DNA of 64,000 nucleotides. It comes from an uncultured bacterium (lineage in GTDB: Bacteria; RBG-13-66-14). The stretch lies in NCBI GenBank assembly GCA_964581465.1, contig CAZOOP010000004.1, positions 7,459 through 71,458 of the forward strand, read 5' to 3'. The translations under genes were made by a program, and so were the position numbers. Under the pieces are notes generated by a model. It was not told where the DNA came from, searched no databases, and saw only the letters and a list, made by a program, of their open reading frames with translations. Shown here piece by piece: positions 11,506 to 57,843 of this stretch (position 1 is its first letter; every line of letters begins with the position of its first letter).

Positions 11506-11691
11506 GGCGACCTCGGCGAAACACCTTCCGCAACGCCCTCCCGCCGGCACCGGCGTTGGCACGTTTCTTGCGGAAGACGCCGCGGCTTCGTCCAGGCGGC
11601 CGCCCCGCCCTGCTGCAAGAAACGTGCCAACGCCTCCCCGAAGAAACGTTCCAGCGGGTTCCCCGGCCGGGGCCGTTTTGCCGAGGTCGCC
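11506..11691. repeat. Compound palindromic repeat, copy 1 (inner core 11552-11634)
   Basis: Inner arms are GGCGTTGGCACGTTTCTTGC / GCAAGAAACGTGCCAACGCC. Outer arms are GGCGACCTCGGCGAAAC / GTTTTGCCGAGGTCGCC. Intergenic. Confidence 0.9.
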
Positions 11692-12257
11692 GCATAGCGG
11701 CCGGCCGTTGCGGGGGAGGGGCGCCGTCTGGTAATATCCCCGGGCGTTCCCGCCGCGGCATCCGAACAGGCTGTTGGATCGACTCGGTCTGGACTTAATC
11801 CCTGGCTGGTAGCTTGTTTCATTATAATCGGGTTTGGGGGTCAGGCGCCCCCGGACAGCCATGTATAAGCTAACAGCTTGTCAGATATGCTTTATCGCTC
11901 TATATGCTGTCATTTCCCGGTAGTCGATTTATGGTAACGTAGCGCATCTTGATAGTTACGCGGCAAGAAGCAGAAACGTCGGTCCCGCCGGTCAGGCGGA
12001 AGCTGCTGCAGCTATTGATGGGTAGCGGGTTATCAGCGGGCTGTCGTCTGGTTTCGCCCCGGCGTCAGCCGGACGCTGGAGCGAGTTGGTGGCATTTGCG
12101 AGCAGAAATCAAACACAACTCCCTCGCAGCAACTCTCAGTCACAACAGATGCTGATCCGGTTCATGGAGATGATCCCTGGTTTTGATAAGCGCAAGAAGC
12201 ACTATTCAACTTCTCCCGATTAATTTTCCAGGCGCATTGCCGATACTCCCGGTGAGG

Positions 12258-13190
12258 ATGATGAAGAATCGATTGTGGGCGCTACTGCTTCCCGTATTGC
12301 TGATCCCGGCCTGCGGGCGCGCCGACGCCGACGCCGAGGCCGATGCATCGGCGGAGGACGCCGAGCTGACCGCCCCGGTCCGCGTGCTGCTCGGCGTCGT
12401 CCGACCGGCGGAGCAGGCGGTTCACGACGAAGCCTGGCTTGAACTGTTGGAGGAGCTGCCCGGCCCCGACGGCGCCATGGGCGTCAGCTTCAGCGACGGC
12501 GACTGGGAACCGGAGTCGACGGGCCTGATTATCGAGCCGACGCCGGAACGGGCCGAGACGATCCATCCCAGGTCTCGGCGGCCGATGGTGACGACGGCGC
12601 TCTACGAACCGCTCTACCGGGAGTGGACCCACGATCTGGCCGAACGCCTGGGGATCGATCCCGACGAGCTGGTCGAGGTCGCGCCGGGCCACGCCCTGGA
12701 GGCGGTCACGCTGACCACGGGAACGGATTTCGACCACGCGGCCCTGCGGGTCTATCCGGACGGCCGCCCCCCGTCGATCGCTCCGACGGAGCTCATCGAG
12801 CGGGGCCACGGCGAGGGCACGGTGATCTACGTCGATCTCTCCGCGTTTACCGCCACCCTCTTCGTCGATGGAGAGATCATCAAGACCTGGACGGTGGCCA
12901 CGGGCAAGCCCTCGACACCGACGCCGCCGGGCGTCTACGAGATAGTGCGCCTGAAGGCCGATCCGATCTGGAGCTGGGAGGGTCGCCGCTACCCGGCCGG
13001 CGATCCGGAGAACGGTCTGGGCTCGCGCTGGATAGGCATCGACCTGCCGGCCTACGGCATGCACGGCACCAACGAGCCCGACTCGATCGGCACCGCGGCC
13101 AGCCACGGCTGCATCCGCTCGAGCAATGCGGACATCGAAGAGGTCTTCGAGTACCTGTCCATCGGGGATAAGATCATCTGGGCCGAATAG
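12258..13190 (+). CDS. L,D-transpeptidase (YkuD domain) lipoprotein
   Basis: Signal/lipobox MMKNRLWALLLPVLLIPAC. Catalytic motif HGTNEPDSIGTAASHGCIRS. GGTGAGG lies upstream of ATG 12258. Confidence 0.88.
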   Translation: MMKNRLWALLLPVLLIPACGRADADAEADASAEDAELTAPVRVLLGVVRPAEQAVHDEAWLELLEELPGPDGAMGVSFSDGDWEPESTGLIIEPTPERAETIHPRSRRPMVTTALYEPLYREWTHDLAERLGIDPDELVEVAPGHALEAVTLTTGTDFDHAALRVYPDGRPPSIAPTELIERGHGEGTVIYVDLSAFTATLFVDGEIIKTWTVATGKPSTPTPPGVYEIVRLKADPIWSWEGRRYPAGDPENGLGSRWIGIDLPAYGMHGTNEPDSIGTAASHGCIRSSNADIEEVFEYLSIGDKIIWAE

Positions 13191-13212
13191 CACGCCTTGG
13201 CAACAATAGAAA

Positions 13213-13234
13213 AAACGCCCCCGCGGGGGCGTTT
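13213..13234 (+). terminator. Putative intrinsic terminator hairpin
   Basis: AAACGCCCCCGCGGGGGCGTTT lies directly after the ldt stop. The T-tract is short. Confidence 0.5.
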
Positions 13235-13416
13235 GTCTAATCCAGGGCTGAGGTCGAGTTGCGATGCCCTCGTGCCCTCGGATCGGTTGATGGGTATCGG
13301 AAGCTGGTTGTGATATTGATGATCACGCGGAGCATACGTAAAGGAGAGGCTTATCCAGCCTCCGACTATGATTTCGAACCACTGATGGATCGTTGTGTTT
13401 TCGAGAAAACGTTCTG

Positions 13417-14382: not shown

Positions 14383-14475
14383 CGGTTGAGGTTGTTGGCC
14401 GCTAAGCGGGTTAAAGCTGTAGCGGCGTTTTCGATGGTTAAGCTCGCAGCCGGAAAAACCGGTCCGCCGGAGGAC

Positions 14476-15560: not shown

Positions 15561-16286
15561 CTAGCCCTGTTCGGAGATGTACTCACGGCAGGCGGCGATG
15601 CCCTGGTGGAGCATACTCCAGATCTCGCTCTCCAGCTCTGGCCACCACTCGCCGTCGCACTCCACGCAGAAGTTGACGTAGCCCTGCTCGTCGGCCGGGA
15701 AGCCGATCTCGACGTAGTGGATTCCCCAGGAGTCCAGCTCGTAAAAAATGTAACCGTCGCCCTCGTAGGGGCCGCGGACGTTCTCGACCTCATCGTAGTA
15801 ATACTGGGTGATGCCGTAGAGCTCCTCGTCGATCTCGGTCCAGATATCACCCTCCAGATTGAAGACGGGCTCGGCGCGCTCCTCGACCGGCTCGGTCTTG
15901 TTGGTCAGGTGCGTGCCGCCACCGCCGCCCCAATCGCCCTCGTAATATAGATAGACCGAGTAGAGACGGGCGTTGTAGTAGTCCACAGCCGGGTCGGTAT
16001 CGGGAGCGTAGAACATCACGTCGACACCCTCGATTACCCAGTCTTCCAACGGCTCGATCCAGGGTGTGGAGTCGATGGCCGTCTCGAGGCCGCCGGCGCT
16101 GTACTCCTCCATGCCGCCGAGGTACTCCAGGAACTGCTCTTCGCTATCAAAATCACCGTACTCGGCGGTTTCATCCCCCTGGGCCGCGGCGAGAGCGCAG
16201 AAGAAAAGAATCAGGCAGAGCGGCAGGCGTCGGATAAGCACCAGTACCCCCTTGGTAAACGGATGTGGGCTGAACACTCGCATCAC
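15561..16286 (-). CDS. Hypothetical acidic secreted protein (Cys-motif family)
   Basis: Signal LPLCLILFFCALAAAQG. The C-terminus is YVNFCVECDGEWWPELESEIWSMLHQGI. First gene of a four-gene minus-strand operon. Confidence 0.75.
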   Translation of the reverse strand: MMRVFSPHPFTKGVLVLIRRLPLCLILFFCALAAAQGDETAEYGDFDSEEQFLEYLGGMEEYSAGGLETAIDSTPWIEPLEDWVIEGVDVMFYAPDTDPAVDYYNARLYSVYLYYEGDWGGGGGTHLTNKTEPVEERAEPVFNLEGDIWTEIDEELYGITQYYYDEVENVRGPYEGDGYIFYELDSWGIHYVEIGFPADEQGYVNFCVECDGEWWPELESEIWSMLHQGIAACREYISEQG

Positions 16287-16389: not shown

Positions 16390-16589
16390 CGCCCCCGCCA
16401 AAACGGCCTTACATCGCTCCGGTTTGACTTAACGGGGGCGGGGCGGCTTTGGCACGTTTCTTGCAGCAGAGCGGGGCGGCTGTCTGCCGGTTCCCGCATC
16501 GCTTTCCGCAAGAAACGTGCCAAAGCCGCCCCGCCGGGTATCCCGACTCGTTCCCGCCGCCGGTAGGGCCGTTTTGCCGGGGGTGGGCG
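16390..16589. repeat. Compound palindromic repeat, copy 2 (inner core 16445-16527)
   Basis: Inner arms are GGCTTTGGCACGTTTCTTGC / GCAAGAAACGTGCCAAAGCC. Outer arms are CGCCCCCGCCAAAACGGCC / GGCCGTTTTGCCGGGGG. It sits in the divergent region between 16286 (-) and lnt (+). Confidence 0.9.
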
Positions 16590-19733: not shown

Positions 19734-20279
19734 ATGGCCCGCAGTCCATCCGTCCTGACCGCTCTCGCACTCAGCCTGGTTCTGCTGCTGACCGCCTGCG
19801 GCGGCGGTGACATCAGCGAAGAGGAGTATCAGGAGGTGATGCGCGCCCTCGAAGAGGCCCGCGCCATGGGCGATCCCGAGGCCGCCGTCTACGAGGAGTT
19901 CGGTGTAACCCCCGAGGAGCTGCGCGGCTTCGAGGCCGAGCGCAGCGATGAGGAGCTGGCCGAGCTGCGTGGTCTGGATACCGAGTTGGGCGGCGTCCCC
20001 GACGAGGCGGCCGATCAGGCGATGAACGAGGAGGACTACGTCGAGGTCTTCGTCTTCATCGGCGGCCTGCAGTCCATGGGCCTGACGCCCGAGGAGGTCG
20101 ACAGCCGGATGCAGAACAAGCTCGACGAGATGGGTTACAGCACGACCGATCTCCAGGACTTCTCCGACTACGTCCAGAACACCCCGGAAATCAAAGAGTG
20201 CGTCGACGCCGCCATCGAAGAGCGTATCGCCTCGGGCGAGCAGATTATGATCGTCGAGGAGCCCCTCGAGCAGGAATAG
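19734..20279 (+). CDS. Small acidic lipoprotein, family member 3 of 5 (two modules)
   Basis: AAAGGAG lies upstream. Lipobox LLTAC. The module EEEYQEVM...TPEELRGFEAE is repeated as EEDYVEVFV...TTDLQDFSDYVQNTPE. Confidence 0.8.
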   Translation: MARSPSVLTALALSLVLLLTACGGGDISEEEYQEVMRALEEARAMGDPEAAVYEEFGVTPEELRGFEAERSDEELAELRGLDTELGGVPDEAADQAMNEEDYVEVFVFIGGLQSMGLTPEEVDSRMQNKLDEMGYSTTDLQDFSDYVQNTPEIKECVDAAIEERIASGEQIMIVEEPLEQE

Positions 20280-20317
20280 TAACCACCAGACCTCAGCCCC
20301 CGACGGGGGAGTCGAGC

Positions 20318-20665
20318 ATGAAAAACCGCCCCGTGCTGATCGCCGTCCTCGCCGCCGCCGCCGTTGCCTTCCTATCCGGCTGCTCGGACGAAGTGAGCTC
20401 TGAGGAGTACGTCGCCGTCCTCGTCGCACAGCTCGAGGCCGCCGACGCCGGAGGCAACCCCGCCGCCGTCGTCGGGGATCACGGCCTTGACGCCGACGAG
20501 TTGGCCGCCTTCGAACTCGAAGTCTACACCGACGAGGCCCTGGCACGCGAGGTGACCGCGCTGCTGGTCAGCGATTACCCCCGGCAGGCTCGAACCTTCG
20601 GCCTGGGAGCCCCTGAGGAATCGGCCACGCATAACGCCACCATCAACGGCGCTTTCGGTGACTAG
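20318..20665 (+). CDS. Small acidic lipoprotein, family member 4 of 5
   Basis: GGGGGAG lies upstream of ATG 20318. Lipobox FLSGC, then SSEEYVAVLVAQ...DADELAAFELEVYTDE. Confidence 0.75.
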   Translation: MKNRPVLIAVLAAAAVAFLSGCSDEVSSEEYVAVLVAQLEAADAGGNPAAVVGDHGLDADELAAFELEVYTDEALAREVTALLVSDYPRQARTFGLGAPEESATHNATINGAFGD

Positions 20666-21050
20666 GATGCCCAGCCGCCAGCTGTCTCTGCTGATCCTGG
20701 TCGGTACGCTGACGATCGCCTGTTCACAAAGCGGTTTCGATGATGACGACTACGTCCGGCTGACCGTCGACATCTCCCTGATCGGCTCCTCCCGGCACCC
20801 CGGCGGTGGACCGCCGACCGATCCAGCCCAGCGCCGGGCTTGGCACCGCGAGGAGGTCGACGCCATCCTCGCCGAATACGGTATCACCGAGAACGACTAC
20901 CTGGAGTACTCCCGCGCCCTCCACGATGAGCCCGCCCGCTACAATGGGGTGCTCGACGAGATAGCCGAGGAGTTCCAGCGCCGCGACGAGGAGCTCGAGG
21001 ACACGGAGGCCCCCGAAGAGGTCAAGCCGCCTCCCGGCTCCTTCGGCTAG
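20658..21050 (+). CDS. Small acidic lipoprotein, family member 5 of 5
   Basis: Lipobox LTIAC, then FDDDDYVRLTVD...ITENDYLEYSRALHDEP. The start is GTG 20658 or ATG 20667. Confidence 0.7.
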   Translation: MTRMPSRQLSLLILVGTLTIACSQSGFDDDDYVRLTVDISLIGSSRHPGGGPPTDPAQRRAWHREEVDAILAEYGITENDYLEYSRALHDEPARYNGVLDEIAEEFQRRDEELEDTEAPEEVKPPPGSFG

Positions 21051-21054
21051 CAGA

Positions 21055-21078
21055 CAACGGCCCCCGCGGGGGCCGTTG
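21055..21078 (+). terminator. Putative terminator hairpin
   Basis: CAACGGCCCCCGCGGGGGCCGTTG lies right after the stop. It has no clear T-tract. Confidence 0.4.
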
Positions 21079-21207
21079 GTACAGGACCGGGGCCGGTGTT
21101 CTTCCCAGGCGGGAACTCGTCTGCACGGAAGAGCCGGAAGCACGTCGATTCCGACACACACCGTCATTCTTCGTCTGTGATCCCGACAAGACCCGCGAGG
21201 TCCGTTC

Positions 21208-22173
21208 TTGAGAACCGACACCGCCGCCCCTCCGGAAAGCAGCCGCGCCGATGAACCCCGCGTCGGCTTTCTCTGGGCCCTCACCAGCGTACTGATTCCC
21301 TCGGTGGTCTTTTACATCATCCCGGACCTGACCGGGCGGCTGGGTGTCTGGGGCACCAGCGCCGTCTGGTTCCCCTTGGCCGTCGGCTTCTACTTCCTGC
21401 TGGCCCTGTTGCTGGGCAAGCTGGATTGCCTGGTCATCCCCCGGGGGCAACGCCTCAAGGTGGTCCTGCTGGGGCTGATTCAAACCATCGGCACCGCGTG
21501 CTTCTTCTTCGCCCTGACCAACGCCGAGCCCGGCCTGGTCTCCTTCGTCAACAACCTGACCCCGGTGCTGGCTACCCTGGGCGGAATCCTGCTGCTCAAG
21601 GAGCGCTTCCGGCCCGCCCAGGCCCTGGGCGCCCTGCTGGTCGTGGCCGGCGCGATGATGCTGACCTACTACGACGAGAGCGGTTCGCTGACCGGCATCC
21701 TCTTCATGGCCGTCGGGTCGGTCTTCTACGCCGCCCACGGCTTGCTGGCCCGTCGGCTGACCGAGCACGTCGATCCCCTGGCCCTGGGTTTCTGGCGCAC
21801 CGGGTTGATGGCCCTGGCCTTCGTCGCCCTGGCCGCTGTCCAAGGGGAGCTGATCTGGCCCACCGCCGGCGGGGATTGGCTGCTGCTGGCCTTGGGCGGC
21901 CTGCTGGGTCCCGTGGGCAGCATCTTTCCCTACTACCTGGCCCTGGAGCGCTGGGGCGTGGGCAAGGTTACCCTGGTGCGCGGTACCATGCCGCTGTGGG
22001 TACTGGTCTGGGGCCTGGTGTTGACGGGCGGCCTGCCGGCGCCGCTTCAACTCGTCGGCGGGGGATTGACCCTGGTCGGCACCGTGTTGATCGTCGTCTT
22101 CCGGCGACGCGATAGAGAAAAACCGCCCGCGTCGGATCCATCGTCGCCGGAAGGCTTGATTGAAAACGGTTGA
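21208..22173 (+). CDS. EamA/DMT-family transporter
   Basis: About ten hydrophobic segments arranged as a duplicated EamA-like pattern. The exact start is uncertain (TTG 21208). Confidence 0.75.
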   Translation: MRTDTAAPPESSRADEPRVGFLWALTSVLIPSVVFYIIPDLTGRLGVWGTSAVWFPLAVGFYFLLALLLGKLDCLVIPRGQRLKVVLLGLIQTIGTACFFFALTNAEPGLVSFVNNLTPVLATLGGILLLKERFRPAQALGALLVVAGAMMLTYYDESGSLTGILFMAVGSVFYAAHGLLARRLTEHVDPLALGFWRTGLMALAFVALAAVQGELIWPTAGGDWLLLALGGLLGPVGSIFPYYLALERWGVGKVTLVRGTMPLWVLVWGLVLTGGLPAPLQLVGGGLTLVGTVLIVVFRRRDREKPPASDPSSPEGLIENG

Positions 22174-22688
22174 AGGGCGGCATCCCCAGCCGGGAGGAAA
22201 ACCGTCAATCACGGCGCGTCGAGGTGGCAAGGATCATTCTCGGGCTCATACCAAGAAACCGGAAAGCATCCATCACGCGGCAAGCCGCTCCGAGAAAGGG
22301 CCTTGACGATTGCCCGGAGCGGGGCGTCAATACGTGGAGATGGATAACGGTCATAAGCGCCAAAGCAGGCGATAGATCGCCGTCAACAGGTCCTCGACCC
22401 ACGGCTGGCTCGCCTCCTGGGCGGAACCGCCAATCTCGACTACTCTTCACGTGACGGATGTATCGCTCATCATCGGGCTAGTCGGCAGGCTGAAATTACG
22501 ATTCGATCCGGACAGGGTACGCGATACCCACGGGAATCGCCCTTCATCCACTTCTGGAGCTCCCAGCGCTACGACCATCATCTTCGAAAACCGAACGGCC
22601 AAAGCTGATCGAGAGAACCGGCAACCGTATCTCCATCCACTACCGTACGCCGTCGCGGACCAAGCCCTCAACCGCCGATCCGGCGCCG

Positions 22689-22879
22689 CCGGAGACCTTT
22701 GCCAAACAATCACTGGGCAAATGCGCCGTCGATAACTCCGAACGGGAGGCTGTGGCACGTTTCTTGCAGCAGGGCGGGGCCGCCGCCGGGACGTTCCAGC
22801 CGCGGACTCCGCAAGAAACGTGCCACAGCCGGGCGCGAAGGCAGGCGCCGCGTGTGCCGTGTTTGGCAAAGGTCTCCGG
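22689..22879. repeat. Compound palindromic repeat, copy 3 (inner core 22748-22830)
   Basis: Inner arms are GGCTGTGGCACGTTTCTTGC / GCAAGAAACGTGCCACAGCC. Outer arms are a perfect 20-bp pair, CCGGAGACCTTTGCCAAACA / TGTTTGGCAAAGGTCTCCGG. Confidence 0.9.
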
Positions 22880-22904
22880 ATATTGCTTCCGAAGGGAGAA
22901 GGCC

Positions 22905-23714
22905 GTGGATGATTACCTCGAGGCCAACCGCGCTCACTGGGACGAGATCGTCGCGCCGCACCGCGCCGGCGATTTCTATGACGTTGAGGGCTTCATCGCC
23001 GGCAAGCCCCGGCTGGACCCGCTGGTACGTGAAGCCCTGGGTGAGATCGAGGGCAGGAAGGTGCTGCACCTGCAGTGCCACTTCGGTCTGGACACCCTGG
23101 ACCTGTCCCGCCTGGGGGCGCTTCCAGTCGGGGTGGATTTCTCGTCTCGAGCAGTGGAGGCGGCCCGGGAGCTGGCCGCCGAGACGGGGTTGGAAGCCCG
23201 CTTCGTTCAGGCCGTCGTCGGCGAGGTTCAGGCGACGTTGCGGGAGACCTTCGAGTTGGTTTTCACCAGCTACGGGGTGTTGACATGGCTGCCCGAGCTG
23301 GCCTCCTGGGCCCGGGACATCGCGGCCTGTCTGGATCCCGGCGGCCGCGTGGTGGTAATCGACTCCCACCCGACGGCGATGGTCTTCGACGATGAAGTGG
23401 AGGATACCGAGCTACGTGTCCGCTATCCCTATTTCGAGGCGGCGGCGATGCGCTTCCGGGAACAGGCGACCTACGCGGTCGGCGGGCTGGCCCTCGAGCA
23501 CGACGTGACCTACGAATGGATGCACCCGATTGAAGAGATCGTGATGAGCCTGCTGGAGGCCGGTTTGCGCCTGACGGTGTTGCGCGAGTACCCCTTCGCG
23601 GCCTGGCGGATGTACCCCTGGCTGGAGCGGGGGGAGGACGGCTTTTGGCGGCTGCCCGGCGGACGCCGTGATATTCCCTTGCTGCTGCGCGTCGAGGCCG
23701 TCAAGCCGAAGTAG
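22905..23714 (+). CDS. Class I SAM-dependent methyltransferase
   Basis: GAAGGGAGAAGG lies before GTG 22905. Motif I-like VLHLQCHFGLDTLDL is followed by VGVDFSSRAVEAA. The track ORF start lies inside the repeat and is rejected. Confidence 0.8.
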   Translation: MDDYLEANRAHWDEIVAPHRAGDFYDVEGFIAGKPRLDPLVREALGEIEGRKVLHLQCHFGLDTLDLSRLGALPVGVDFSSRAVEAARELAAETGLEARFVQAVVGEVQATLRETFELVFTSYGVLTWLPELASWARDIAACLDPGGRVVVIDSHPTAMVFDDEVEDTELRVRYPYFEAAAMRFREQATYAVGGLALEHDVTYEWMHPIEEIVMSLLEAGLRLTVLREYPFAAWRMYPWLERGEDGFWRLPGGRRDIPLLLRVEAVKPK

Positions 23715-24178
23715 TGGGAGGCCGTGTGCGTTGGTGGAGCGTTGTCCTGATCGCCCTCGGGTCGATCGTCTTCCTGCACTCGGTGGTGTTGCGCGCCTGC
23801 GGCGTAGTGCTGGTCGCCCTGGACCTCCAGGCCGGGATGCTGCGCCTGTTCCAGCGGAAGCTGGCCCGCAAGCGCTACCGTGATGCGGCGGAGCTGATCA
23901 CACCGGTTCAAGCCTCGGCGACAGCGCGGCCCTTTGTCGACGGCGCTTTCGACGCCCTCTATCTGGTCTGCGCTCTGCACGAGATTCAGGATCGCGACGC
24001 ACCCCTGGCCGAGTTCCGCCGTGTTCCGCGCCCCGACGGTCTGCTGGCCGTGGTCGAGTTCCGCCCCGACCCCGATTACCGGTTGCGCGGCACGACACGG
24101 CGCGTTGTCGAGTCCCGGTGGTTCTCCCACGAGGTGACAGGCGGGTTGCTCTGGAGCTACACCGCCCGCTTCCGTTGA
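23714..24178 (+). CDS. Truncated methyltransferase-like protein with an N-terminal hydrophobic segment
   Basis: Start overlaps the upstream stop (TAGTG). It has post-I and later MTase motifs (ALDLQAGML, FDALYLVCALHEI, PDGLLAVVEF) but no Gly-rich motif I. Confidence 0.55.
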   Translation: MGGRVRWWSVVLIALGSIVFLHSVVLRACGVVLVALDLQAGMLRLFQRKLARKRYRDAAELITPVQASATARPFVDGAFDALYLVCALHEIQDRDAPLAEFRRVPRPDGLLAVVEFRPDPDYRLRGTTRRVVESRWFSHEVTGGLLWSYTARFR

Positions 24179-24465
24179 TTCGCCTAGCGTCGCGCTGTGC
24201 TCGTTCGCGTATGTGTTAATACGCCCCGCCGCTGGGAGTTTTTACCCCGTACGTCTTTGCGTTGACTGTTAATGAGCCGCCGATGGTCAGCGGCTTCCTC
24301 GCCCGAGTGCTTTATCCGGGTTAAACGGTCCGTAACCCTTGACGCTGGTACGTTTTTTGCATAGTTTAAGGATGAGCCTCTCCGAGTCTCACCACTTCAT
24401 TGTATCGTCACAGTATCGTCGTATCCCGCACCGCCGGTTCGGTGGTCGCCACTGATTGGCCGACA

Positions 24466-26418: not shown

Positions 26419-26753
26419 CTAACCGTCGGGGGGTTTCGCCCCCCACGACCACCGGCTCGCTTTGTGTATCCGGTTGAAGCACACCAACCGGGGAGTCCGT
26501 AGCGTCGCCGAGTCGTCGCGGGAAACCCTATCTACTTGCGGATGCTCCAGTCGCAGGGCCGGAGAGTCGAGTGTTCGCATTTCTTTGCTCTTTTCACCGG
26601 CTTCCTTAATCGCTCTCACGGCATCTCACGCTCCGCGATGATTCCCCCGCCGGCGGCGCGCACCACCGCTGCCTCACCGCTGTATCATCCCTCGGATAGC
26701 ATCGACTGCGGTGTAGTGGCAAATCCGCCGTTGGAAGCAAACCAGCGCTAACG

Positions 26754-27224
26754 ATGACCAAAGTCTCCTCGCAAAGCTTCAGCATTCTCATTGTCCTGCT
26801 CGCGCTGCTGAACGCTCGCGGCGCCGAGGCCAACCTGCGCGCCCCCGGTCCCGCCGACGAGCCGGGTACCCCGGAGCACGCCCTGGCGAGCTTTCTCACC
26901 GCCCTCTTCGAGGATGACGCCGCCGCCGTCGCCGAGCTCTACGATACCTCGCCCACTTGGAACGGAGATTGGCGTGAGCTGACCGCCGACAACCGGCTTT
27001 TCCTCGCCGAGGCCCTCGAGCCCGATCTGGAGTACTCCTATACACCGCCGCGTCCCGTCGAAGACGCCTCGAATCTGGAAGAGCTTCTCGGGCCGGAGCG
27101 CGCCATCGTCGCCAGTGAGCTGATCCAGATCGTCGACGACGTGTGGATCAGCCGGACTTACCACTTCCTCCTGGAGAACCGGGAGGGGGATTGGAGGGTG
27201 ATCCTCTTCGATGAAGCCCCCTAA
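26754..27224 (+). CDS. Hypothetical secreted protein
   Basis: Signal SFSILIVLLALLNARGAEA. Coding-like third-position GC. Confidence 0.65.
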   Translation: MTKVSSQSFSILIVLLALLNARGAEANLRAPGPADEPGTPEHALASFLTALFEDDAAAVAELYDTSPTWNGDWRELTADNRLFLAEALEPDLEYSYTPPRPVEDASNLEELLGPERAIVASELIQIVDDVWISRTYHFLLENREGDWRVILFDEAP

Positions 27225-28050: not shown

Positions 28051-28082
28051 CCGCGTTCACAATCCCAACCGCAGCAAGGACC

Positions 28083-28115
28083 CCCGCGGGGGTCCTTGCT
28101 TTATTAACGAACCGG
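28083..28115 (+). terminator. Intrinsic terminator
   Basis: AGCAAGGACCCCCGCGGGGGTCCTTGCT followed by TTATT. Confidence 0.6.
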
Positions 28116-28150
28116 TTCACACCGACGACGTATTGCGTTCCCGTCCCACC

Positions 28151-28336: not shown

Positions 28337-28337
28337 T

Positions 28338-31112: not shown

Positions 31113-31164
31113 GGCTTCCGGGGGCGACTGTGACGGTTTTTATCCCGTGGGGGAGAGGATTTCG

Positions 31165-41880: not shown

Positions 41881-42516
41881 GGATTATCACTCGTGTCTGG
41901 ATCAGATTAGATCGCTGATCGATTGTCAACAAATGCTTTGGCATCAGGGAACGTGTTCGGACCAAATCAGGCTGATTGGGAGGGGCTTGCCGGGCCGTTA
42001 TGCGCTACCCGGAAATGTCGAGATCCGCTACAGATTACGCTTGGCATCACACACGATCCCGGACCAGCCAACACAACTTCGAAACACCGATACACCTCGA
42101 AAAGCCGCTACAAGGCTATGCCGAATGATGCTTGGCCCGCAAACTTAAACCCTCACCGCCTTCGGTATATATGCTTGTTAATAGGACGCTTAGGGTCGAT
42201 ACTGCCTCGTCGAGACCAAGGACGTCAAGCAGTTGGTTTTAGTACGTCGTGACGTCACTACGGGCATCCTGGGAATGCGGGAATCCACGTACCTGCCACA
42301 AGCAGCTCGCTCGATGTGCGCATCTGATTGCCTGCCGGCTGCACGTATCAGAACGTTATCCAGTAACACCATGGTCCCTGACGGTTAAGTGATCCCTTAA
42401 GCTATTGTTAGTCGCCACTTTATAACCGCCCGTTTTGGGACAAGTATCTGATGTTCATCACGTCGATTATCAGCAGATTACAATCACGATCCGGTCCGGA
42501 CGGGGTATTCGATCCC
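41881..42516 (-). mobile_element. Repeat family B copy, reverse orientation, interrupted by a nested MITE
   Basis: Starts GGATTATCACTCG and ends GGTATTCGATCCC. It contains the family B blocks in reverse complement, split by the 354-bp element. Confidence 0.6.
42043..42396. mobile_element. 354-bp MITE (copy P) with GG(G/C)ATCAC / GTGATCCC terminal inverted repeats
   Basis: Alignable end to end with 61729-62084. Flanking 8-mers are TTACGCTT / TTAAGCTA. Confidence 0.7.
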
Positions 42517-42521
42517 ATGAT

Positions 42522-42624
<103 letters not shown>

Positions 42625-51406: not shown

Positions 51407-54259
51407 TCAAAACTCCCATGCAATTGAAAAGTGGAATTTGGCGTCCTCGAAGTCCCGGCCGTTCCACGGCCAGGCCCAGTCGAAGCGCAGCGGCAGCCCC
51501 AGCGAATCCCAGCGCAGACCCATCCCGATCGAGGCCTTGAGGTCGACGAAGTGGAAGTTGGGCTCGTTGGTCCAGAGTTGGAGGTTGGTGAAGTCGATCT
51601 CGCGGTCGATGTTGTCCCAGGCCAACCCGGCGTCGATGAAGCCCACGCCGCGGAAGTTCCCCAGGATGAAGCCGGGCAGGAAGCCGAAGTCGATGCGGTC
51701 GACCAGGGGCAGACGCAGCTCGAGGTTGGCGAAGGCGACGTTGTTGCCGACGAACTCGGTGTAGTCGTAGCCGCGCAGGTCGAGGGCGCCGCCGAGGTAG
51801 GTGTCGGGGTCGTAGGGGTCGCCCCCGAAGCCGAAGCCGGAGTAGACGCGCAGGGCGAAGCCGGCGGTGCTGTAGAGGTTGAGGTAGCCGCGGAAGTCCA
51901 GGGAGAGATAGTTGTACTCCCAGTCCGAGCCCATGAATGCGCTGGGGCGCTGGTAGCCCAGGTTGAGCCGGATGCCGCGCACGGGGAAGGTGTAGTACCA
52001 CTCGGTGCTGTCGAAGACCAGGCTGGCGCCGGGACCGATGACGCTGCGGTAATCGGCGAAGATCGAGCCGTCGTAGAAGTAGTATTGGCGGCCTTGCTCG
52101 TAGCCGGTGATGTTGGCGTCGACGCGCAGCTCCTCGGTGAAGGGGTAGCTGAAGGTCAGTTGGCCGCCGGAGAGGCGCTCCCAGAAGTAGCCGTCGGGGA
52201 AGAGGTAGTAGTCCTTCCAGGTGAAGGCCCGAGCGCCGTAGGTCGGCCGGTGCTTCATCCAGTAGTAGGCGACGTCGAGGTCGAGATCGTCCAGGCTGGA
52301 AACGCTGGTCAGGCCGAACTGGACGAAGAGGCGGTGGTCGCCCAGGGTGTCGGAGCCGATGATCAGGCCCAGGGCGCGGAAGGCGCCGCCGGTGGTGTAC
52401 TCGGCCTGGGCCATCCCGGCGTCTATCTCGAGGTCGTACTCCCAGGGCTCGAGGGTGCCGATCTTGGAGAGGTCGCCGACCTCGAAGCCGGTGCGGATGG
52501 GCGGGTCGTAGTAGCCCTCGAGGGCCAGGGAGTCCAGGGCGGCGTCGAAGGGTTCGTCGACGGCGAGGTCGAGGTCCATGATGTGGACCTGGTGGGTCAT
52601 CTGCTGGTAGGAGTTGAAGGCGATCTGCGTTCCGTCGGCGGCGACGTCGGGGTTGTAGACGTCGCGCAGGGAGTCGGTGAGCTGGACGATCGAGCCGTCG
52701 CGGCGGTCGAAACAGAAGATGTTCGAGGGGCCGACGCGGTCGGAGCTGAAGACGATGCGCTCGCCGTCGGGGTGGTAATCGGGGTAGCGGTCCTCGTTGG
52801 GTCCGGCGGTCAGCACAGTTGTTTCGCCGCTGTCGAGGTCGAGCTCGGCCAGGTGGACGCCGTCTTCCTCTTCGAGGGCGAAGGCCAGGCGTTCGCCGTC
52901 GGGGGAGGCCACGGGGTGGGCCTCGAGGTGGGGCGAGTCGGTCAGGCGTTCGAGGGCGCCGGTGCCGGTGTCCAGGCTGAAGATGTCCACGATGCCGGCG
53001 AGCTGGGCGGTCAGGTAGAGCTCTTCGCCGTCGGCGGAGAAGCAGAGGCCGTCGATGGTGTCCAGGTTCAGTTCGTCGAAGACCCGGTAGACCTCTCCGG
53101 TGACGACATCGATCAGGTAGATGCCCTGCCAGCGGTCGTCCTTGGCTATCACGGCCAGGGTGTCGCCGGCGGGGTCGAAGGCCACGCTGCGCGCCGAGGG
53201 ACTCAAGTAGTCGAAATCCCCCGTCGAGGTCAGTCGGGCGAACTGGCGTCCCTCCTTGGCGTCCAGCAGGTAGAGGTGGGCGCCGCGGTCCAGATTGGCG
53301 ATCACGGCCACCAAGTCCCCCGAGGGGGACAGACGTGGGCCGAGGAAGCTGTGGTACTCGTCGCCGCCGTCGGTGATTCGCCGGCTGAAATCCTCGGGGC
53401 GGCGGCCCTCGACCAGGTCGACCCAGAAGCGGCGCTTGAGGTGGATCGTCCACTCCTCGGTGAACTCGTCGAGGTCCTTGTCGATGACCTGCTCGAGGGC
53501 TTCGGAGACGCTGCGGCTGTCGGTGCGCGCGACGGCCCTGATCAGCTCGGGCAGCTTGTCCTCGCCGTAGCGCTCGACGAAGAAATCCACGGCGCTGTGG
53601 CCTTCCTTGTAGGCCAGGTAGAGCAGATAACCCGGGATGTAGGCGCCGTTGCGAAAGTACTCCAGCGGGACGATGTTGTCGGAGAGCACCGCGTCGCGCA
53701 GCACCATGCGGGCGTCGGTGTCCCACTGTCGGGCCTCGTGGGAGGGCAGGCCCTCCATGAACCAGAAGTCCGGCGTGCCGATCTGGTTGGAGAGCAGCTC
53801 GCCGGTGACGTCGCGGAAGAAGCTGTAGAAGTTGAAGACATGGGTCAGCTCGTGGACGATGACCTCGTACATCAAGGGCTGGGAGCCCTCGTAGGGGATG
53901 ACGATGCGGTTGCGCAGCGGTTCGGAGAAACCACCCACACCCTCGGGAAGGTAGCTAAGCGTGATGTTGGTCTGGCGGAAGTCGCGCTGGGAGTTGTAGA
54001 GGATGAAGGGGATCCGGTCGGTGGGCTCGTTGCCCAGGTCCTCGCGCAACTGCTTCCAGGCGGCCTCGGCCATCTCGGCCACCACGCCGACGACCTCCTC
54101 GCCGTCACCGTAGAAGTAGACGTCGAAGTGCTCCGTGGCCAGGATACGCCAGTGCATCTCGGTGTCGCGCACCTTGTTCGAGCCGAAGGCCCCGTACTGG
54201 GCGAGGGAGGCGACGGCTGGAATCATCAGCAGGATGACTGCGCGGTGTGTCGTTTTCAC
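51407..54259 (-). CDS. Outer-membrane fusion protein: HExxH peptidase-like + PD40/TolB-like beta-propeller + Omp85 barrel (paralog of 28338-31112)
   Basis: Signal MKTTHRAVILLMIPAVASLA, then VHELTHVF. PD40-like blades (YPDYHPDGERIVFSSDR). Omp85 C-terminus LRGYDY...FIDAGLAW...FHFSIAWEF. Confidence 0.85.
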   Translation of the reverse strand: MKTTHRAVILLMIPAVASLAQYGAFGSNKVRDTEMHWRILATEHFDVYFYGDGEEVVGVVAEMAEAAWKQLREDLGNEPTDRIPFILYNSQRDFRQTNITLSYLPEGVGGFSEPLRNRIVIPYEGSQPLMYEVIVHELTHVFNFYSFFRDVTGELLSNQIGTPDFWFMEGLPSHEARQWDTDARMVLRDAVLSDNIVPLEYFRNGAYIPGYLLYLAYKEGHSAVDFFVERYGEDKLPELIRAVARTDSRSVSEALEQVIDKDLDEFTEEWTIHLKRRFWVDLVEGRRPEDFSRRITDGGDEYHSFLGPRLSPSGDLVAVIANLDRGAHLYLLDAKEGRQFARLTSTGDFDYLSPSARSVAFDPAGDTLAVIAKDDRWQGIYLIDVVTGEVYRVFDELNLDTIDGLCFSADGEELYLTAQLAGIVDIFSLDTGTGALERLTDSPHLEAHPVASPDGERLAFALEEEDGVHLAELDLDSGETTVLTAGPNEDRYPDYHPDGERIVFSSDRVGPSNIFCFDRRDGSIVQLTDSLRDVYNPDVAADGTQIAFNSYQQMTHQVHIMDLDLAVDEPFDAALDSLALEGYYDPPIRTGFEVGDLSKIGTLEPWEYDLEIDAGMAQAEYTTGGAFRALGLIIGSDTLGDHRLFVQFGLTSVSSLDDLDLDVAYYWMKHRPTYGARAFTWKDYYLFPDGYFWERLSGGQLTFSYPFTEELRVDANITGYEQGRQYYFYDGSIFADYRSVIGPGASLVFDSTEWYYTFPVRGIRLNLGYQRPSAFMGSDWEYNYLSLDFRGYLNLYSTAGFALRVYSGFGFGGDPYDPDTYLGGALDLRGYDYTEFVGNNVAFANLELRLPLVDRIDFGFLPGFILGNFRGVGFIDAGLAWDNIDREIDFTNLQLWTNEPNFHFVDLKASIGMGLRWDSLGLPLRFDWAWPWNGRDFEDAKFHFSIAWEF

Positions 54260-54306
54260 TGCACCTCACCTCCCGGTGGGTCCCCCGCCGAGTTGTCGAT
54301 TATCGG

Positions 54307-54493
54307 GCGAGACCTCGGCAAAACAGCGTCATGGCAATCGAACCGATCGAACGTTCGAGCGGGTAGGCGTTGGCACGTTTCTTGCAGCGGGGCGCGGACG
54401 CCCGTCGCCGCAACCCACGGCTACTTCCGCAAGAAACGTGCCAACGCCGGGCTTCTTGGGGTTGTCTTCTTGCGGGTTTTGCCGAGGTCTCGC
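54307..54493. repeat. Compound palindromic repeat, copy 6 (inner core 54366-54448)
   Basis: Inner arms are GGCGTTGGCACGTTTCTTGC / GCAAGAAACGTGCCAACGCC. Outer arms are a perfect pair, GCGAGACCTCGGCAAAAC / GTTTTGCCGAGGTCTCGC. Confidence 0.9.
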
Positions 54494-54522
54494 GGTCCGT
54501 CGCCGGTGTGGCGAGACGGTCC

Positions 54523-55275
54523 TCAGGGGATGATGTAGCGGTACTCGGAGACCAGGTGAGGTTGGAGGCCGTTCTTGACGTCGAGGGCCACCTCGTCGAG
54601 GAGGTTGTTGAAGATGGAGAGCAGCTCGCCCCGTCCCGGCGGTGTGCGGCTGGTCTGCTCGCGTTCGAGCTCGACGCCGTTGTTGCGTTTCCAGACCTGC
54701 TCGCCGGTGGCGGTGTCGTAGCCGCGCAGGGTGACGTCGAGGACGAAGAGCTCGTCGGTCTGGCGATCCATGGCCTCGTCGGAGCGGCCGAAGAGCATCG
54801 AGGGGCTGTCCTGCTCGTCGACATCGTAGCTTTCGGCCAGACGCTCGTGGTATTCGAGGCTGCCGTAGCGGCTGAATTCGACTTCGCCGGTGACCAGTAG
54901 CTCGGCGCCGGTGAGCTCGCCCAAGCGGCGCTGATGGTCCGGGTCAAGGAAGTCGAAGCCCTCGATCTGCTCCAGGGCGGCGCGTGTGCGTTCGAGGGGG
55001 ACGACCTCGAAGGTGCCGACGGTTTCGATTTCTTCGCGCAGGCGCCGGGCGGTCAGTTCGCCCAGCTCGAGCTCGCCGCCGCGGTAGGCCAGATCGAGGA
55101 CGACCAGGGTGCCGTAACGTCCGGGGTCGATCTCGCTGTCGGCCTGATGGCTGACCAGGACCCGGCTGCTCCGGTAGCAGCCTACCGTGGCGAGGGTTAG
55201 GATGAGGGCCGGGATCAGCGGAACGCTGAGAGCGATGCGGGTCGGGTGGCTTCTTTTATTCCGAGGTGTCGTCAT
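54523..55275 (-). CDS. Hypothetical lipoprotein (LpoB/CsgG-like fold is only a guess)
   Basis: Lipobox LTLATVGC. The start is set at ATG 55275, overlapping the upstream gene end. The longer track ORF has no support. Confidence 0.7.
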   Translation of the reverse strand: MTTPRNKRSHPTRIALSVPLIPALILTLATVGCYRSSRVLVSHQADSEIDPGRYGTLVVLDLAYRGGELELGELTARRLREEIETVGTFEVVPLERTRAALEQIEGFDFLDPDHQRRLGELTGAELLVTGEVEFSRYGSLEYHERLAESYDVDEQDSPSMLFGRSDEAMDRQTDELFVLDVTLRGYDTATGEQVWKRNNGVELEREQTSRTPPGRGELLSIFNNLLDEVALDVKNGLQPHLVSEYRYIIP

Positions 55276-55666
55276 CGGTATCACCCCCGTCCCAGGTTGC
55301 AGGCTCGTCGGTGCCGGTTTCTTTATCATTGAAAGCGTCGCGGTGGGTTTTGCCAAAGTCGAGGAGGTTCTCGCGGATATCCTCGGACCCGGGGGCCGCC
55401 TCGGCGGCCCGCTGGTAGAGTTCACGTGCGCGCTCGTAGTCGCCGAGGGCCTCGCTGGCCACGGCGATGTTGTTGAGCAGTCCGGGGTCGCCCGGGGAGA
55501 GTTCGAGGGCCTGTTCCCAGCGCAGCCGGGCCTCGTTCCAGAGTCCGAGGCGGGCGGCCCGGGCGGCGAAGCCGCGCAGTTCGTCCTCACCGGCGCGCTT
55601 GGGGCAGCCGGTGAACAACAGTATAACGACGAGTAAGACGCCGATGATGCTGGATCTGGTTTTCAT
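55256..55666 (-). CDS. TPR-repeat lipoprotein
   Basis: Lipobox LLFTGC. TPR-like helices (WNEARLRWEQALELSPGDP, LGDYERARELYQRAAEAAP). Confidence 0.8.
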   Translation of the reverse strand: MKTRSSIIGVLLVVILLFTGCPKRAGEDELRGFAARAARLGLWNEARLRWEQALELSPGDPGLLNNIAVASEALGDYERARELYQRAAEAAPGSEDIRENLLDFGKTHRDAFNDKETGTDEPATWDGGDTDDDTSE

Positions 55667-56517
55667 TTCCGCTGCCCGTCCTTTGTGCCTTGGAGCCGGC
55701 TGATTTCATCGGCGGCGACGTCGATCAGCTCGCCGTCTTCGAGTTTTATCGATACGGCGTTCTTGAGCGGCTCGATGCGCACCAGCCGACCGCGGCGGCC
55801 GTCGCTGAGCTGTACGCGGCTGCCGCGCCGGGGCAGGTTGCGGCGCGCCTGGCGGTAGAACTCGTGTTCGTAGGCCAGGCAGCACATCAGCCGGCCGCAG
55901 AGTCCGGAGATGCGGTTGGGGTTGAGGACCAGGTCCTGCTGCTTGGCCATTTTGATGGTCACCGGTTCGAAGCCCCGCATCCAACTGCTGCAACACAGGG
56001 GCCGGCCGCAGGAGGCGTAACCGCCCAGGCGGCGGGCTTCGTCGCGCACACCGATCTGTTGCATCACAATGCGCGTGCCCAGTCGGCGGGCCAGCATGGC
56101 CACCAGGCGGCGATAGTCGACTTTCTTGGGCGTTGTGAAGAAGAAAGTGACCGCTTCACCATCCACGGCCGCGCTGATATCGACGAGTTTGAGCGGCAGG
56201 TCGCCGCGCAGCTCCAGGAACAGGCGCTTGGCCCGCCGCTCGAGATGGGCGGCGTGGGCCAGGCGGCAGTAGTCGTCACCCCGCGCCCGGCCGATTACCC
56301 GGCAGGGTAGGTGGTAGCGGGTTTTCTCGTCGATGGGGAAGTCCAGCCGGCTGACTTCGACGAAGTGCAGGGATCCGTCGTGGATCACCTTGTAGCATTG
56401 GCCCACGGCGGCGTCGGCGTCGGGGCAGCAGCCGACCAAACGCAGGTGCTCCTCGCGCAGGACGAACTCCAGGTAGCGGGGTCGACGCTCGTTATGGGTT
56501 GGGTCGGGTGTGTTCAT
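55663..56517 (-). CDS. PSP1 C-terminal domain protein (YaaT/RicT-like)
   Basis: Contains MQQIGVRDEARRLGGYASCGRPLCCSSWMRGFEPVTIKMAKQQDL and GLCGRLMCCLAYE. The start is set at ATG 56517. Confidence 0.88.
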   Translation of the reverse strand: MNTPDPTHNERRPRYLEFVLREEHLRLVGCCPDADAAVGQCYKVIHDGSLHFVEVSRLDFPIDEKTRYHLPCRVIGRARGDDYCRLAHAAHLERRAKRLFLELRGDLPLKLVDISAAVDGEAVTFFFTTPKKVDYRRLVAMLARRLGTRIVMQQIGVRDEARRLGGYASCGRPLCCSSWMRGFEPVTIKMAKQQDLVLNPNRISGLCGRLMCCLAYEHEFYRQARRNLPRRGSRVQLSDGRRGRLVRIEPLKNAVSIKLEDGELIDVAADEISRLQGTKDGQRK

Positions 56518-56737
56518 CTGCCTCGGTCGGCTGTCTGGCATTGCGGGTTGCTTTCGAACTGGATCAAGTAGAAGGCTATGATGGCGGGCGGCCGATCCTA
56601 AAGACCCGTGCAAGCTCCTGGTTTTCTGTTGTGGTCAACAGGCTCGAGCCCCGGACCGGCCTCGACCCCCGCAAATAATACACTGATTTTCCGGAGAATT
56701 AGTTTCATTCTTTTCAGGGTTTGAGCGTCGCGGCTGA

Positions 56738-57646
56738 TCAGCCTTCTCTGGAAGAGCTCAGGGTCAAGCCGCCCAGCACGGTCTCCAGGGTGAGTTGGAG
56801 GTGGGCGTTGGCGGCCACCAGCCGGGTGGCGCGGATCAACTCGGCGGCCGCCGCGGCGGACCAGTCGCCGTCCTCGTTACTGGCCAGCCGGGCCGTCTCC
56901 TCCAGCAGGCGTCGCGCGGATTCACGGTCCCGAACCTCGCCGCAGGCGGCGTAGACCCTGAGCAGTCTGCCCGCCCGGACCTGCTCCCAGATGGCGGCCG
57001 CCGCCGCCAGAGTCTGGTCGTCCTCGGCCAGCTCCCTGGCCCGGGTCAGAGAGCCCTCGGCCCGTTCGGCCGCCGTCGCGGCCCCTTCGGCGTCCAGGCC
57101 CTCGTCGACCAAGGCCGCCGTGATCTCCTCCCGGGAGAGCGCCCGGCAGGCGATGAGCTGGCAGCGGCTGGTGATCGTCTGCAGCAGGGACTCCGGGGAG
57201 TCCGTGGTCAGCAGCAGCACCGCGCCCGTCGGCGGGGCCTCGAGGGTTTTCAACAGCGCGTTTTGGGCCTGAGGGGTCAGGCGTTCCGCCCGGGGGATCA
57301 ACGCGATCTTTCCCAGACCCTCGACGGGCTTGCGCGACAGGGACTGGATCAGCCCACGCACCTCTTCGATTTTAAGATGCGCCTCGTCGGTCTCCAGGGC
57401 GAGGAAGTCGCCGTAGTTGCCCGAGTCGAAGCGTCGGCAGCTCGGGCAATCGCCGCAGCCCGTCCGTTCGGCGCAGGCCAGTGCGCGGGCGAAATCCCGC
57501 GCCAGGGCGGCCTTGCCCACACCAGCGGGGCCGTGGAGCAGGTAGGCGTGCCCCAGACGGTCGCCTGTCAGGATGCGCCCCAGCAAACGACGGGCCGTCG
57601 ATTGACCCCGGGCGCTGCTCTTGAAGGCTGTGTCCATGTGAATCAT
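56738..57646 (-). CDS. holB: DNA polymerase III subunit delta-prime
   Basis: Contains HAYLLHGPAGVGKAALARDFARALAC, a Zn module CGDCPSCRRF, and SRCQ. Confidence 0.9.
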   Translation of the reverse strand: MIHMDTAFKSSARGQSTARRLLGRILTGDRLGHAYLLHGPAGVGKAALARDFARALACAERTGCGDCPSCRRFDSGNYGDFLALETDEAHLKIEEVRGLIQSLSRKPVEGLGKIALIPRAERLTPQAQNALLKTLEAPPTGAVLLLTTDSPESLLQTITSRCQLIACRALSREEITAALVDEGLDAEGAATAAERAEGSLTRARELAEDDQTLAAAAAIWEQVRAGRLLRVYAACGEVRDRESARRLLEETARLASNEDGDWSAAAAAELIRATRLVAANAHLQLTLETVLGGLTLSSSREG

Positions 57647-57664
57647 ATCCTTGGGCTGTACCCT

Positions 57665-57843
57665 GCGGGACCTTTGCTTGACCGTTTCAGGCTCCTAACC
57701 CCGTCGGCCGTCGCGGGGGTGCGCGTTGGCACATTTCTTGCGCAATCCGACGCGCCCTGAACCAGGCGGCTTCCCGCCCCGCTGCAAGAAATGTGCCAAC
57801 GCCGGTCCGGTGCGGGCGCCTCGTCGATGAAGCAAAGGTCCCG
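57665..57843. repeat. Compound palindromic repeat, copy 7 (inner core 57723-57803)
   Basis: Inner arms are GCGTTGGCACATTTCTTGC / GCAAGAAATGTGCCAACGC, with the G-to-A change compensated. Outer arms are GCGGGACCTTTGCTT / AAGCAAAGGTCCCGC. Confidence 0.9.

Follow-up and report, generated by a model that had tools for sequence, protein, structure and literature searches.

The DNA analysed here, a 64,000-nt stretch of contig CAZOOP010000004.1 from an uncultured bacterium (hereafter the window), is a housekeeping part of a chromosome with a G+C content of about 63%. Among the genes, which were called by a composition heuristic together with Pfam, are those for TyrRS, RNase Y, Lnt, HolB, Tmk, UmuDC and two Omp85/PD40 proteins. 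Between these genes lie seven copies of a repeat of about 185 nt that consists of two nested stems and whose inner arms carry the −24/−12 core sequence of sigma-54 promoters (Table 1). Positions 20118-28625 of the window are syntenic with locus L031 of 'Candidatus Coatesbacteria bacterium Bin_537' (WJMB01), a metagenome-assembled genome (MAG), at 89-93% identity; the organism of the window is therefore a close relative of MAG WJMB01.

A search of the window with the 16-mer TTGGCACGTTTCTTGC, allowing up to three mismatches, returned 15 matches where 0.37 were expected, a number reached by none of 100 shuffles. Fourteen of them pair up as seven inverted pairs, and the fifteenth is a lone site at 24345 with three mismatches. 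The pairs coincide with the seven copies reported in the initial annotation, the ends of the elements shifting by no more than 6 nt. All seven are intergenic, as stated there, and the flanking open reading frames have coding-type third-position G+C and Pfam domains. Species-representative genomes were then scanned for the exact inner palindrome. This yielded at least 47 stretches, all those listed being from the MAG mentioned above, of which about 378 kb, roughly a tenth of a genome, were sampled. They contain at least 53 further copies, which together with the window makes at least 60 copies in two genomes. The density in the window is one copy per 9 kb, and hundreds of copies per genome are plausible.

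Each copy is composed of outer arms, spacers, inner arms and a centre. The inner arm comprises 20 nt, GGC(T/G)TTGGCACGTTTCTTGC, and is opposed by its complement; in an alignment of the seven copies only these 20-nt arms are invariant. They enclose a centre of 37-44 nt in the family (mode 43 nt) and of 41-43 nt in the window, close to the value of about 43 nt given initially. The polarity noticed at that time was also found again: the two ends of the centre are conserved yet different, TTGC being followed by AGCAGGGCGGGGC on the B side and by GGAGTCCG.CGCGG on the A side. The outer arms, 15-21 nt long, follow a loose consensus, GCGAGACCTYKGCMAAAC, and their sequence is copy-specific. They had been described as differing between copies while staying self-complementary, which proved correct (about 99% complementarity), although they lie 24-41 nt and not 35-45 nt further out. 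Within a copy the two spacers lack complementarity to each other and have preferred lengths of about 29 and 40 nt; the distance from the GACC motif to TTGGCAC is about 47 or 58 nt. Conservation is limited to the arms and the adjoining 13 nt, and neither the spacers nor the middle of the centre can be aligned among copies. A search of the spacers for IHF-type or other motifs gave only a weak cGGGGA next to the arm where the spacer is long, and CC where it is short. Centre polarity is independent of the side of the long spacer (20 versus 26 copies). Likewise, neither the polarity nor the side of the long spacer shows a correlation with the T/G allele at arm position 4 or with the length class of the centre. 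The two asymmetries are uncoupled, as if the centre flips between inverted arms. Outer modules without an inner module ('empty' forms, which would have indicated that a small element had entered an older hairpin) were sought and none was convincing. At 680-783 of locus L020, a variant copy has perfect inner arms (GGTTTTGGCACGTTTCTTGC) 74 nt apart instead of about 43 nt, and the centre can therefore be longer.

The complementarity of the outer arms is a property of the individual copy. The best complementarity score had a median of 16 within copies and of 8 between copies, and 45 of 52 copies exceeded the 95th percentile of the between-copy scores. For a count of covariation, 30 copies were aligned on fixed anchors, giving 42 stem pairs. 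In this alignment 90.6% of the cells were paired, compared with 79.9% in shuffles, and the covariation score was 0.294, compared with 0.101 after shuffling and no more than 0.091 after sliding the partners; none of 500 shuffles reached either observed value. Changes on both sides affected 22 of the 42 stem pairs (157 cells), while changes on one side were seen in 5 cells only. The T/G site at arm position 4 is mirrored in 60/60 copies. Subfamily descent was considered as the cause of this mirrored site and rejected, since allele, polarity and length class are uncorrelated. All three compensated changes listed in the initial annotation were recovered: TTTT/AAAA in copy 5, CACA/TGTG in copy 7 and TGTGG/CCACA in copy 3.

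G·U pairs made up about 1% of the cells and were no commoner than other mismatches. The mismatches in the stems did not favour wobble on the strand of the mRNA (2 sense, 4 antisense and 2 transversions), and a conserved fold in the centre was not detected (covariation term 0.05). Strict Watson-Crick covariation without an excess of G·U would be atypical of selected RNA helices and therefore points to a symmetry that is maintained in DNA rather than in RNA. Of the earlier suggestion that pairing is selected, either as RNA or as a cruciform, the strong covariation stands, whereas pairing in RNA is not favoured. The stems may be kept complementary by a DNA process, namely hairpin or template-switch correction, or by recognition of a single-stranded hairpin.

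Conservation in place was determined for two orthologous pairs, copies 3 and 4 and their counterparts in L031. The inner arms of these pairs had 0/80 changes, the outer arms 4/73, the spacers 24/139 and the centre 12/86; at fourfold-degenerate sites of flanking genes 104/921 changes were counted. With a neutral rate of 11-17%, 9-13 changes are expected in the inner arms and none was observed, so that the arms are held at each locus while spacers and centre drift. As judged from these two pairs, purifying selection, or a correcting process of equal effect, acts on the inner arms at each locus. Furthermore, copy 5 with its TTTT/AAAA variant is kept in three contigs of the same species (L131-L133); this species is represented in the microbial-mat data sets ERZ922772/ERZ922773 and JGI 3300012009.

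Between more distant relatives copies come and go. In L049, whose RNase Y is 86% identical, the rny-S24 peptidase spacer of 148 nt is without a copy, and instead a copy follows umuC, where the window has none. The rny-S24 locus is also without a copy in the 76% relatives L128-L130, and relatives at 70-76% identity had no copies in 10-21 kb. This presence/absence polymorphism supports the proposed propagation in the manner of miniature inverted-repeat transposable elements (MITEs), and terminal inverted repeats exist as nested pairs of 15-21 nt (outer) and 20 nt (inner). The filled and empty loci are too diverged in alignment to give borders. Similarity among copies over their whole length, also typical of MITEs, was not found. 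In the 378 kb, neither a longer element bounded by these ends nor a pair of widely separated arms was present, and no coding segment was repeated.

With respect to genes, 36 copies lie in tandem, 8 in convergent and 4 in divergent contexts. For 26/46 copies the outer arm begins −16 to +29 nt relative to the stop codon of a gene transcribed in the direction of the copy, and for 13 of these 26 the distance is 6 nt or less. Both element polarities are about equally frequent among the stop-adjacent copies, and neither asymmetry is oriented relative to the genes. The starts of genes reading away (n = 41) are spread broadly, with 8 at up to 40 nt, 12 at 41-100 nt and 21 at more than 100 nt. Given the stop-adjacent position and the broad start distances, most copies occupy 3′ untranslated or intercistronic DNA, and their placement is not that of promoters; copies 3 and 7, which sit 19-27 nt 5′ of start codons, are exceptions. 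A reading as intrinsic terminators was rejected, as there is no T run after the outer stem and few canonical terminators lie downstream (a separate one follows the copy in 3/26 stop-adjacent cases).

The inner arm contains TGGCACG-N4-TTGC, which is exactly the sigma-54 −24/−12 core with GG-N10-GC. The core TGGCAC-N5-TTGC is invariant in the 14 arms of the window and in 106 arms from the MAG: positions 6-11 and 17-20 never vary in these 120 arms, whereas positions 1-5, 12 and 16 do. We estimate the chance of this core in an arbitrary conserved 20-26-mer, on either strand, at about 2 × 10−5. A sister family of the same architecture has the arm GGAACTGGCACGGTTTTTGC; it is complete in the metagenome contigs L072 and L077, and both ends of L049 fall within such a sister element. 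Five of the 20 arm positions differ between the two families, all of them among the nine non-core positions (126/15504 = 0.008). Two activators of the NtrC type with ESELFGH...GAFTGA are encoded at the MAG loci L003 and L036.

Sites were scored with a matrix of 29 Salmonella sites bound in chromatin immunoprecipitation (ChIP) (PMC3844500). Four sigma-54 candidates of the lineage that are not part of the repeat reach 19.4-22.5 bits and have a variable N4, TTGCA and A+T-rich downstream sequence. A lone promoter candidate at 24346-24360 (+), CTGGTACGTTTTTTGCATAG (19.4 bits), is situated 40 nt 5′ of a FecR-domain gene (24400-26418) and is identical over at least 60 nt in its L031 orthologue (3968-3982). 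The arms of the repeat had been called perfect sigma-54 promoter consensus sequences in the initial annotation. As far as the −24/−12 core is concerned this is accurate; promoter behaviour is not seen, considering the 26 copies at stop codons, the 8 between convergent genes, scores of about 12 bits and the missing orientation.

On balance we lean towards the view that the arms are selected protein-binding sites and that sigma-54 holoenzyme is one of their readers, each copy then providing two convergent docking sites that fire poorly. The copies would have been dispersed by some mobilisation mechanism and would survive mainly just behind stop codons, with the 20-nt inner arms acting as sequence-specific protein-binding sites under purifying selection at each locus. 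Most likely, the arms would be read by the RNA polymerase holoenzyme with sigma-54, for which each copy would offer two convergent −24/−12 docking sites 43 nt apart. The closed complexes of this holoenzyme are stable and depend on an activator (PMC3844500). Complexes docked at the repeat would more likely be stable, poorly firing closed complexes than routine promoters, because G+C-rich DNA follows the −12 element and no gene is consistently located downstream. They could give rise to local interference or insulation, or to occasional activator-dependent transcription.

Several observations weigh against this view. Scored with the Salmonella matrix, which is small and derived from a distant organism, the arms reach 11.9-12.3 bits (copy 5, 14.7 bits) and thus fall below all 29 training sites (16.4-26.0 bits). 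G+C-rich sequence follows the arms at positions −11 to −9. The initial annotation had asked for rpoN and enhancer-binding protein genes to be confirmed; the two activators were found, but in the sampled sequence of roughly 378 kb neither an rpoN gene nor an RpoN-box motif was detected. All 20 arm positions, including the N4 spacer and five upstream bases, are uniform within the genome, and sigma-54 alone therefore does not explain the conservation. In addition, the arms changed in concert between the sister lineages; uniform arms and concerted change fit a dedicated enzyme that co-evolves with its site. With regard to dispersal, neither a transposase nor an empty site with resolvable borders was found, and a recurrent direct repeat, as expected of a target-site duplication, was absent from the 26 junctions inspected. 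Finally, the conservation in place is based on two orthologous pairs only.

A purely selfish element resembling MITEs or REPINs, the inner arms and single-stranded hairpin of which are read by a dedicated transposase or RAYT-like enzyme, is the main rival, though a doubtful one. The sigma-54 core would in this case be a relic of an inward transposase promoter in the terminal repeat of the parent, or a coincidence without a present role. Uniform arms, their concerted change in the sister lineage and the locus-dependent presence of copies in related genomes would all be accounted for, as would the indifference to gene orientation. Strict Watson-Crick complementarity is what a DNA hairpin substrate calls for, and the two inward-facing sites resemble terminal repeats with a transposase promoter. 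However, arms without a single change beside spacers and centres that drift at or above the neutral rate are unexpected for inert dead copies. Moreover, the arms alone are conserved and not the whole length, no target-site duplication came to light, and neither a longer element of the same ends nor a repeated coding segment was present in the 378 kb. The low chance of finding the core in the arm, and the five sister differences that spare it, also argue against a selfish origin alone.

It is rather unlikely that the repeats go beyond the docking sites favoured above and form a domesticated, genome-wide set of them, with hundreds of convergent closed complexes behind genes. Such a set might work as bidirectional insulators or roadblocks, or as a genome-wide switch for convergent transcription under an enhancer-binding activator, possibly a promiscuous one. 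The DNA palindrome would then keep both sites identical, and the face-to-face pairs in about 80 viral contigs described below would represent a related use.

We regard it as improbable that the repeat is an RNA element of 3′ untranslated or intercistronic regions, in which the stems block 3′ exonucleases, are cut by RNase III or terminate transcription without a U tract, and in which an RNA-binding protein reads the arm and the resemblance to sigma-54 sites is incidental. REP and Correia elements act at the RNA level as 3′ elements. The frequent position at stop codons, where either orientation would serve, the length of the stems (15-21 and 20 bp) and the rarity of canonical terminators behind the copies, which would leave the element itself to form the 3′ end, are in line with such a role. 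The scarcity of G·U pairs, the 157 double versus 5 single changes and the missing wobble bias on the mRNA strand are not, and there is neither a U run past the outer stem nor a conserved fold in the centre. Copies 2, 3 and 7 lie in divergent promoter regions or just 5′ of start codons, and the sigma-54 core together with its retention in the sister family would be left unexplained.

Genuine bidirectional sigma-54 promoter cassettes, in which each half (outer arm as activator site, spacer and −24/−12 element) drives the gene on its far side, are very improbable despite the perfect core, the TTGCA on the B side, the outer arm at near activator-site distances about 47 or 58 nt 5′ of TTGGCAC (roughly one helical turn apart), the start codons close to copies 3 and 7 and the activators in the lineage: 8 copies have convergent neighbours and most are next to stop codons, 21/41 downstream starts are more than 100 nt away, the B side, which is the better promoter, is directed away from the upstream gene for 15 copies and back into that gene for 11, the melting region is G+C-rich, unlike the lineage's sigma-54 sites outside the repeat, and independent promoters would not keep mirrored neutral changes.

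If the arms do bind sigma-54 holoenzyme, this genome would have several times more sites than any mapped regulon (about 70), almost all of them behind genes, and non-promoter roles of sigma-54, such as titration, roadblock and interference, would be directly testable with a defined 83-bp module. Regardless of sigma-54, the repeat is a clean case in which arms are selected in place while the rest drifts and in which symmetry is kept without G·U intermediates, and the family bears on how palindromic repeats are maintained. Should the arms be nothing but a transposase site, the result would be a new repeat family from an uncultivated phylum, ordinary though elegant.

Table 1. Copies of the nested palindrome in the window, and two further repeats in the window and in related loci
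Feature	Position	Length (nt)	Outer arms	Inner arms	Centre	Context and remarks
Copy 1	11506-11691	186	11506-11522, 11675-11691	11552-11571, 11615-11634	11572-11614 (43 nt), B side right	Spacers 29 and 40 nt; between + strand genes cNMP-binding (10339-10866) and YkuD (12174-13190)
Copy 2	16392-16583	192	16392-16408, 16567-16583; CCCCCGCCAAAACGGCC type, one mismatch	16445-16464, 16508-16527	16465-16507, B side left	Divergent genes, 15561-16286 (−) and lnt (+); LNT_N domain from ~16812
Copy 3	22689-22879	191	22689-22708, 22860-22879; perfect 20 bp	22748-22767, 22811-22830; mirrored TGTGG/CCACA	22768-22810	Right outer arm ends ~27 nt 5′ of likely GTG start of methyltransferase gene; orthologue L031 5454-5644
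Copy 4	28152-28336	185	28152-28167, 28321-28336; one uncompensated C-to-A change versus orthologue	28207-28226, 28270-28289	28227-28269	Convergent; end 1 nt from stop codon of Omp85/PD40 gene (28338-31139, −); orthologue L031 289-474
Copy 5	36957-37137	181	36957-36974, 37120-37137	37000-37019, 37061-37080; mirrored TTTT/AAAA	37020-37060 (41 nt)	21 nt past RNase Y stop codon
Copy 6	54307-54493	187	54307-54324, 54476-54493; GCGAGACCTCGGCAAAAC, perfect 18 bp	54366-54385, 54429-54448	54386-54428	29 nt past stop of gene 54523-55662 (−); ~48 nt 5′ of start of second Omp85/PD40 paralogue
Copy 7	57665-57844	180	57665-57681, 57828-57844	57722-57741, 57784-57803; mirrored CACA/TGTG, one unmatched outermost base	57742-57783 (42 nt)	19 nt 5′ of holB start (57646, −); 568 nt past tmk stop
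Second repeat, window	3170-3520; 31160-31510
Second repeat, other loci	L021 4230-4590; L036 3720-4075; L041 6095-6450; L044 3320-3670; L007 1-345; L025 1155-1500; L028 1300-1645; L035 2785-3120; L011 3355-3700; L034 3200-3530; L037 4465-4775; L002 270-590
Third repeat, window	41940-42520; 61727-62084					One copy directly 5′ of tRNA gene 42551-42624
Third repeat, other loci	L016 6135-6597 and 1-286; L001 3366-3825

The two Omp85 paralogues of the window (28341-31139 and 51410-54265, both on the − strand) encode proteins of about 940 amino acids with Peptidase_MA_2, a PD40/beta-propeller part and a C-terminal Omp85 domain. Each is bordered by one repeat, copy 4 past the stop codon of the first and copy 6 before the start of the second; relatives retain one gene of the Omp85/PD40 type beside rny and macB/ftsX. 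A canonical intrinsic terminator for the + strand gene 27202-28050 lies at 28080-28112 (GCAAGGACCCCCGCGGGGGTCCTTGC, then TTTATT) and is kept in L031 with compensated loop changes, and the lineage therefore does use ordinary terminators. A bidirectional function of this terminator was rejected, as the T run is present on the + strand only.

Two further non-coding repeats of lower G+C content were noticed. The second repeat, unrelated to the first, is about 320-350 nt long, its copies are 70-80% identical, and it had no match in Rfam. With ends that are inverted copies (GGCATCATGGAACGTGTTCGGACC ... GGTCCGAACAGGTTCCATGATCCC), it has the appearance of a classical MITE, or else of a structured RNA that a long helix closes. 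The third repeat measures about 360-470 nt.

Outside this lineage, too, sigma-54 cores occur repeatedly as inverted pairs. A metagenome scan for cores 35-50 nt apart, from which the family of the window was excluded by design, gave 77 loci. Most of these are alternating-orientation arrays of sigma-54-like sites on low-G+C contigs, two of them with phage genes; other perfect palindromes are found in L054, L063, L080, L096, L097/L098, L117 and L124. In L096 (positions 1-160, 71% G+C) a perfect palindrome has 54-nt arms with TGGCACGGCGGTTGC, and its 49-nt centre holds a hairpin. In IMG/VR, 78 viral contigs (L134-L211) carry tight pairs of the form TTGGCAYG-N4-TTGC-N3-6-GCAA-N4-CRTGCCAA, of which about 0.003 would be expected by chance according to our estimate, and 31 further viral contigs have pairs 35-50 nt apart. 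The N4 segments of the tight viral pairs are not complementary (mean 1.17/4) and their loops begin and end with A or T; these pairs therefore share the core sequence and not a hairpin. Tight pairs and arrays, with up to 20 sites in 2.5 kb, also occur on many marine and freshwater contigs, and further examples lie in L122 (1-480), L107 (1600-1810), L074 (6140-6620) and L086 (2010-2230), the latter two with genes for terminase, M15 peptidase, GP88 and ThyX. Comparison of the phage-like contigs with annotated phages revealed no useful similarity. Since every hit of these scans includes the core by design, the hits are no evidence of its conservation.

To our knowledge, face-to-face pairs of sigma-54-like sites in viral contigs have not been described. 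The repeat shares with them two inverted sigma-54 cores facing each other. It differs by its centre of about 43 nt and its stems, the viral pairs having gaps of 3-6 nt or forming arrays, without an outer stem, at low G+C and among phage genes.

The initial annotation did not recognise the element as a described repeat family, and our searches agree. At gathering scores, Rfam returned two tRNAs only for the window and nothing for 15 related loci, and the literature searched for repeats of Coatesbacteria or MITEs with RpoN promoters contained nothing relevant. Integron attC sites (RYYYAAC / GTTRRRY) were considered and rejected. The outer arms end in ...GCAAAAC / GTTTTGC..., which leaves the attC core unmatched, and several housekeeping genes, on both strands, lie between one copy and the next.

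Among the sigma-54 sites that ChIP has mapped in Salmonella, E. coli and Vibrio, many are positioned where they would drive no gene; the roles proposed for such non-promoter sites are interference, repression or antisense transcription (PMC3844500). The arms share with these mapped sites the exact −24/−12 core. Mapped sites are single, diverse outside the core and number about 70 per genome, whereas the sites of the repeat are paired, palindromic and identical over 20 nt, and may number hundreds.

REP units, BIMEs and the RAYT-mobilised REPINs are extragenic and found near stop codons, and form inverted pairs of 20-25-mers around a polar linker (BIME-1, Y-L-Z1); each REP unit forms an imperfect palindrome whose conserved 5′ tetranucleotide is of the GTAG type. 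The present element is likewise an extragenic inverted doublet adjacent to stop codons, with compensated changes in its arms and long vertical persistence. Its arm GGCTTTGGCACGTTTCTTGC, however, is not self-complementary and is without a GTAG-type motif, and the additional outer stem and the sigma-54 core have no counterpart in REP elements or REPINs. Correia elements of Neisseria (CREE/NEMIS) are non-coding intergenic sequences of about 100-190 bp, present in hundreds of copies, with inverted terminal arms of 20-26 nt that carry sigma-70-type elements, an IHF site in the centre, a duplicated TA target and similarity among copies over the whole length. The element resembles them in its intergenic location tight against genes, its hairpin-forming arms with promoter-type sequence and its polar centre, and differs in having a sigma-54 core, a copy-specific outer stem, saturated spacers and centre, and no visible target duplication.

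Each of the named families has defining features that the element lacks: a self-palindromic GTAG-type unit in REP, target duplication and whole-length similarity in MITEs and Correia elements. Because of its small size, inverted arms, stop-adjacent extragenic position, compensated changes and gain or loss between relatives, it is best filed as a lineage-specific, non-autonomous nested-palindrome repeat in the class of REP/BIME, Correia elements and MITEs. Within this class it is distinguished by a copy-specific outer stem, an uncoupled polar centre and arms built on a sigma-54 core.

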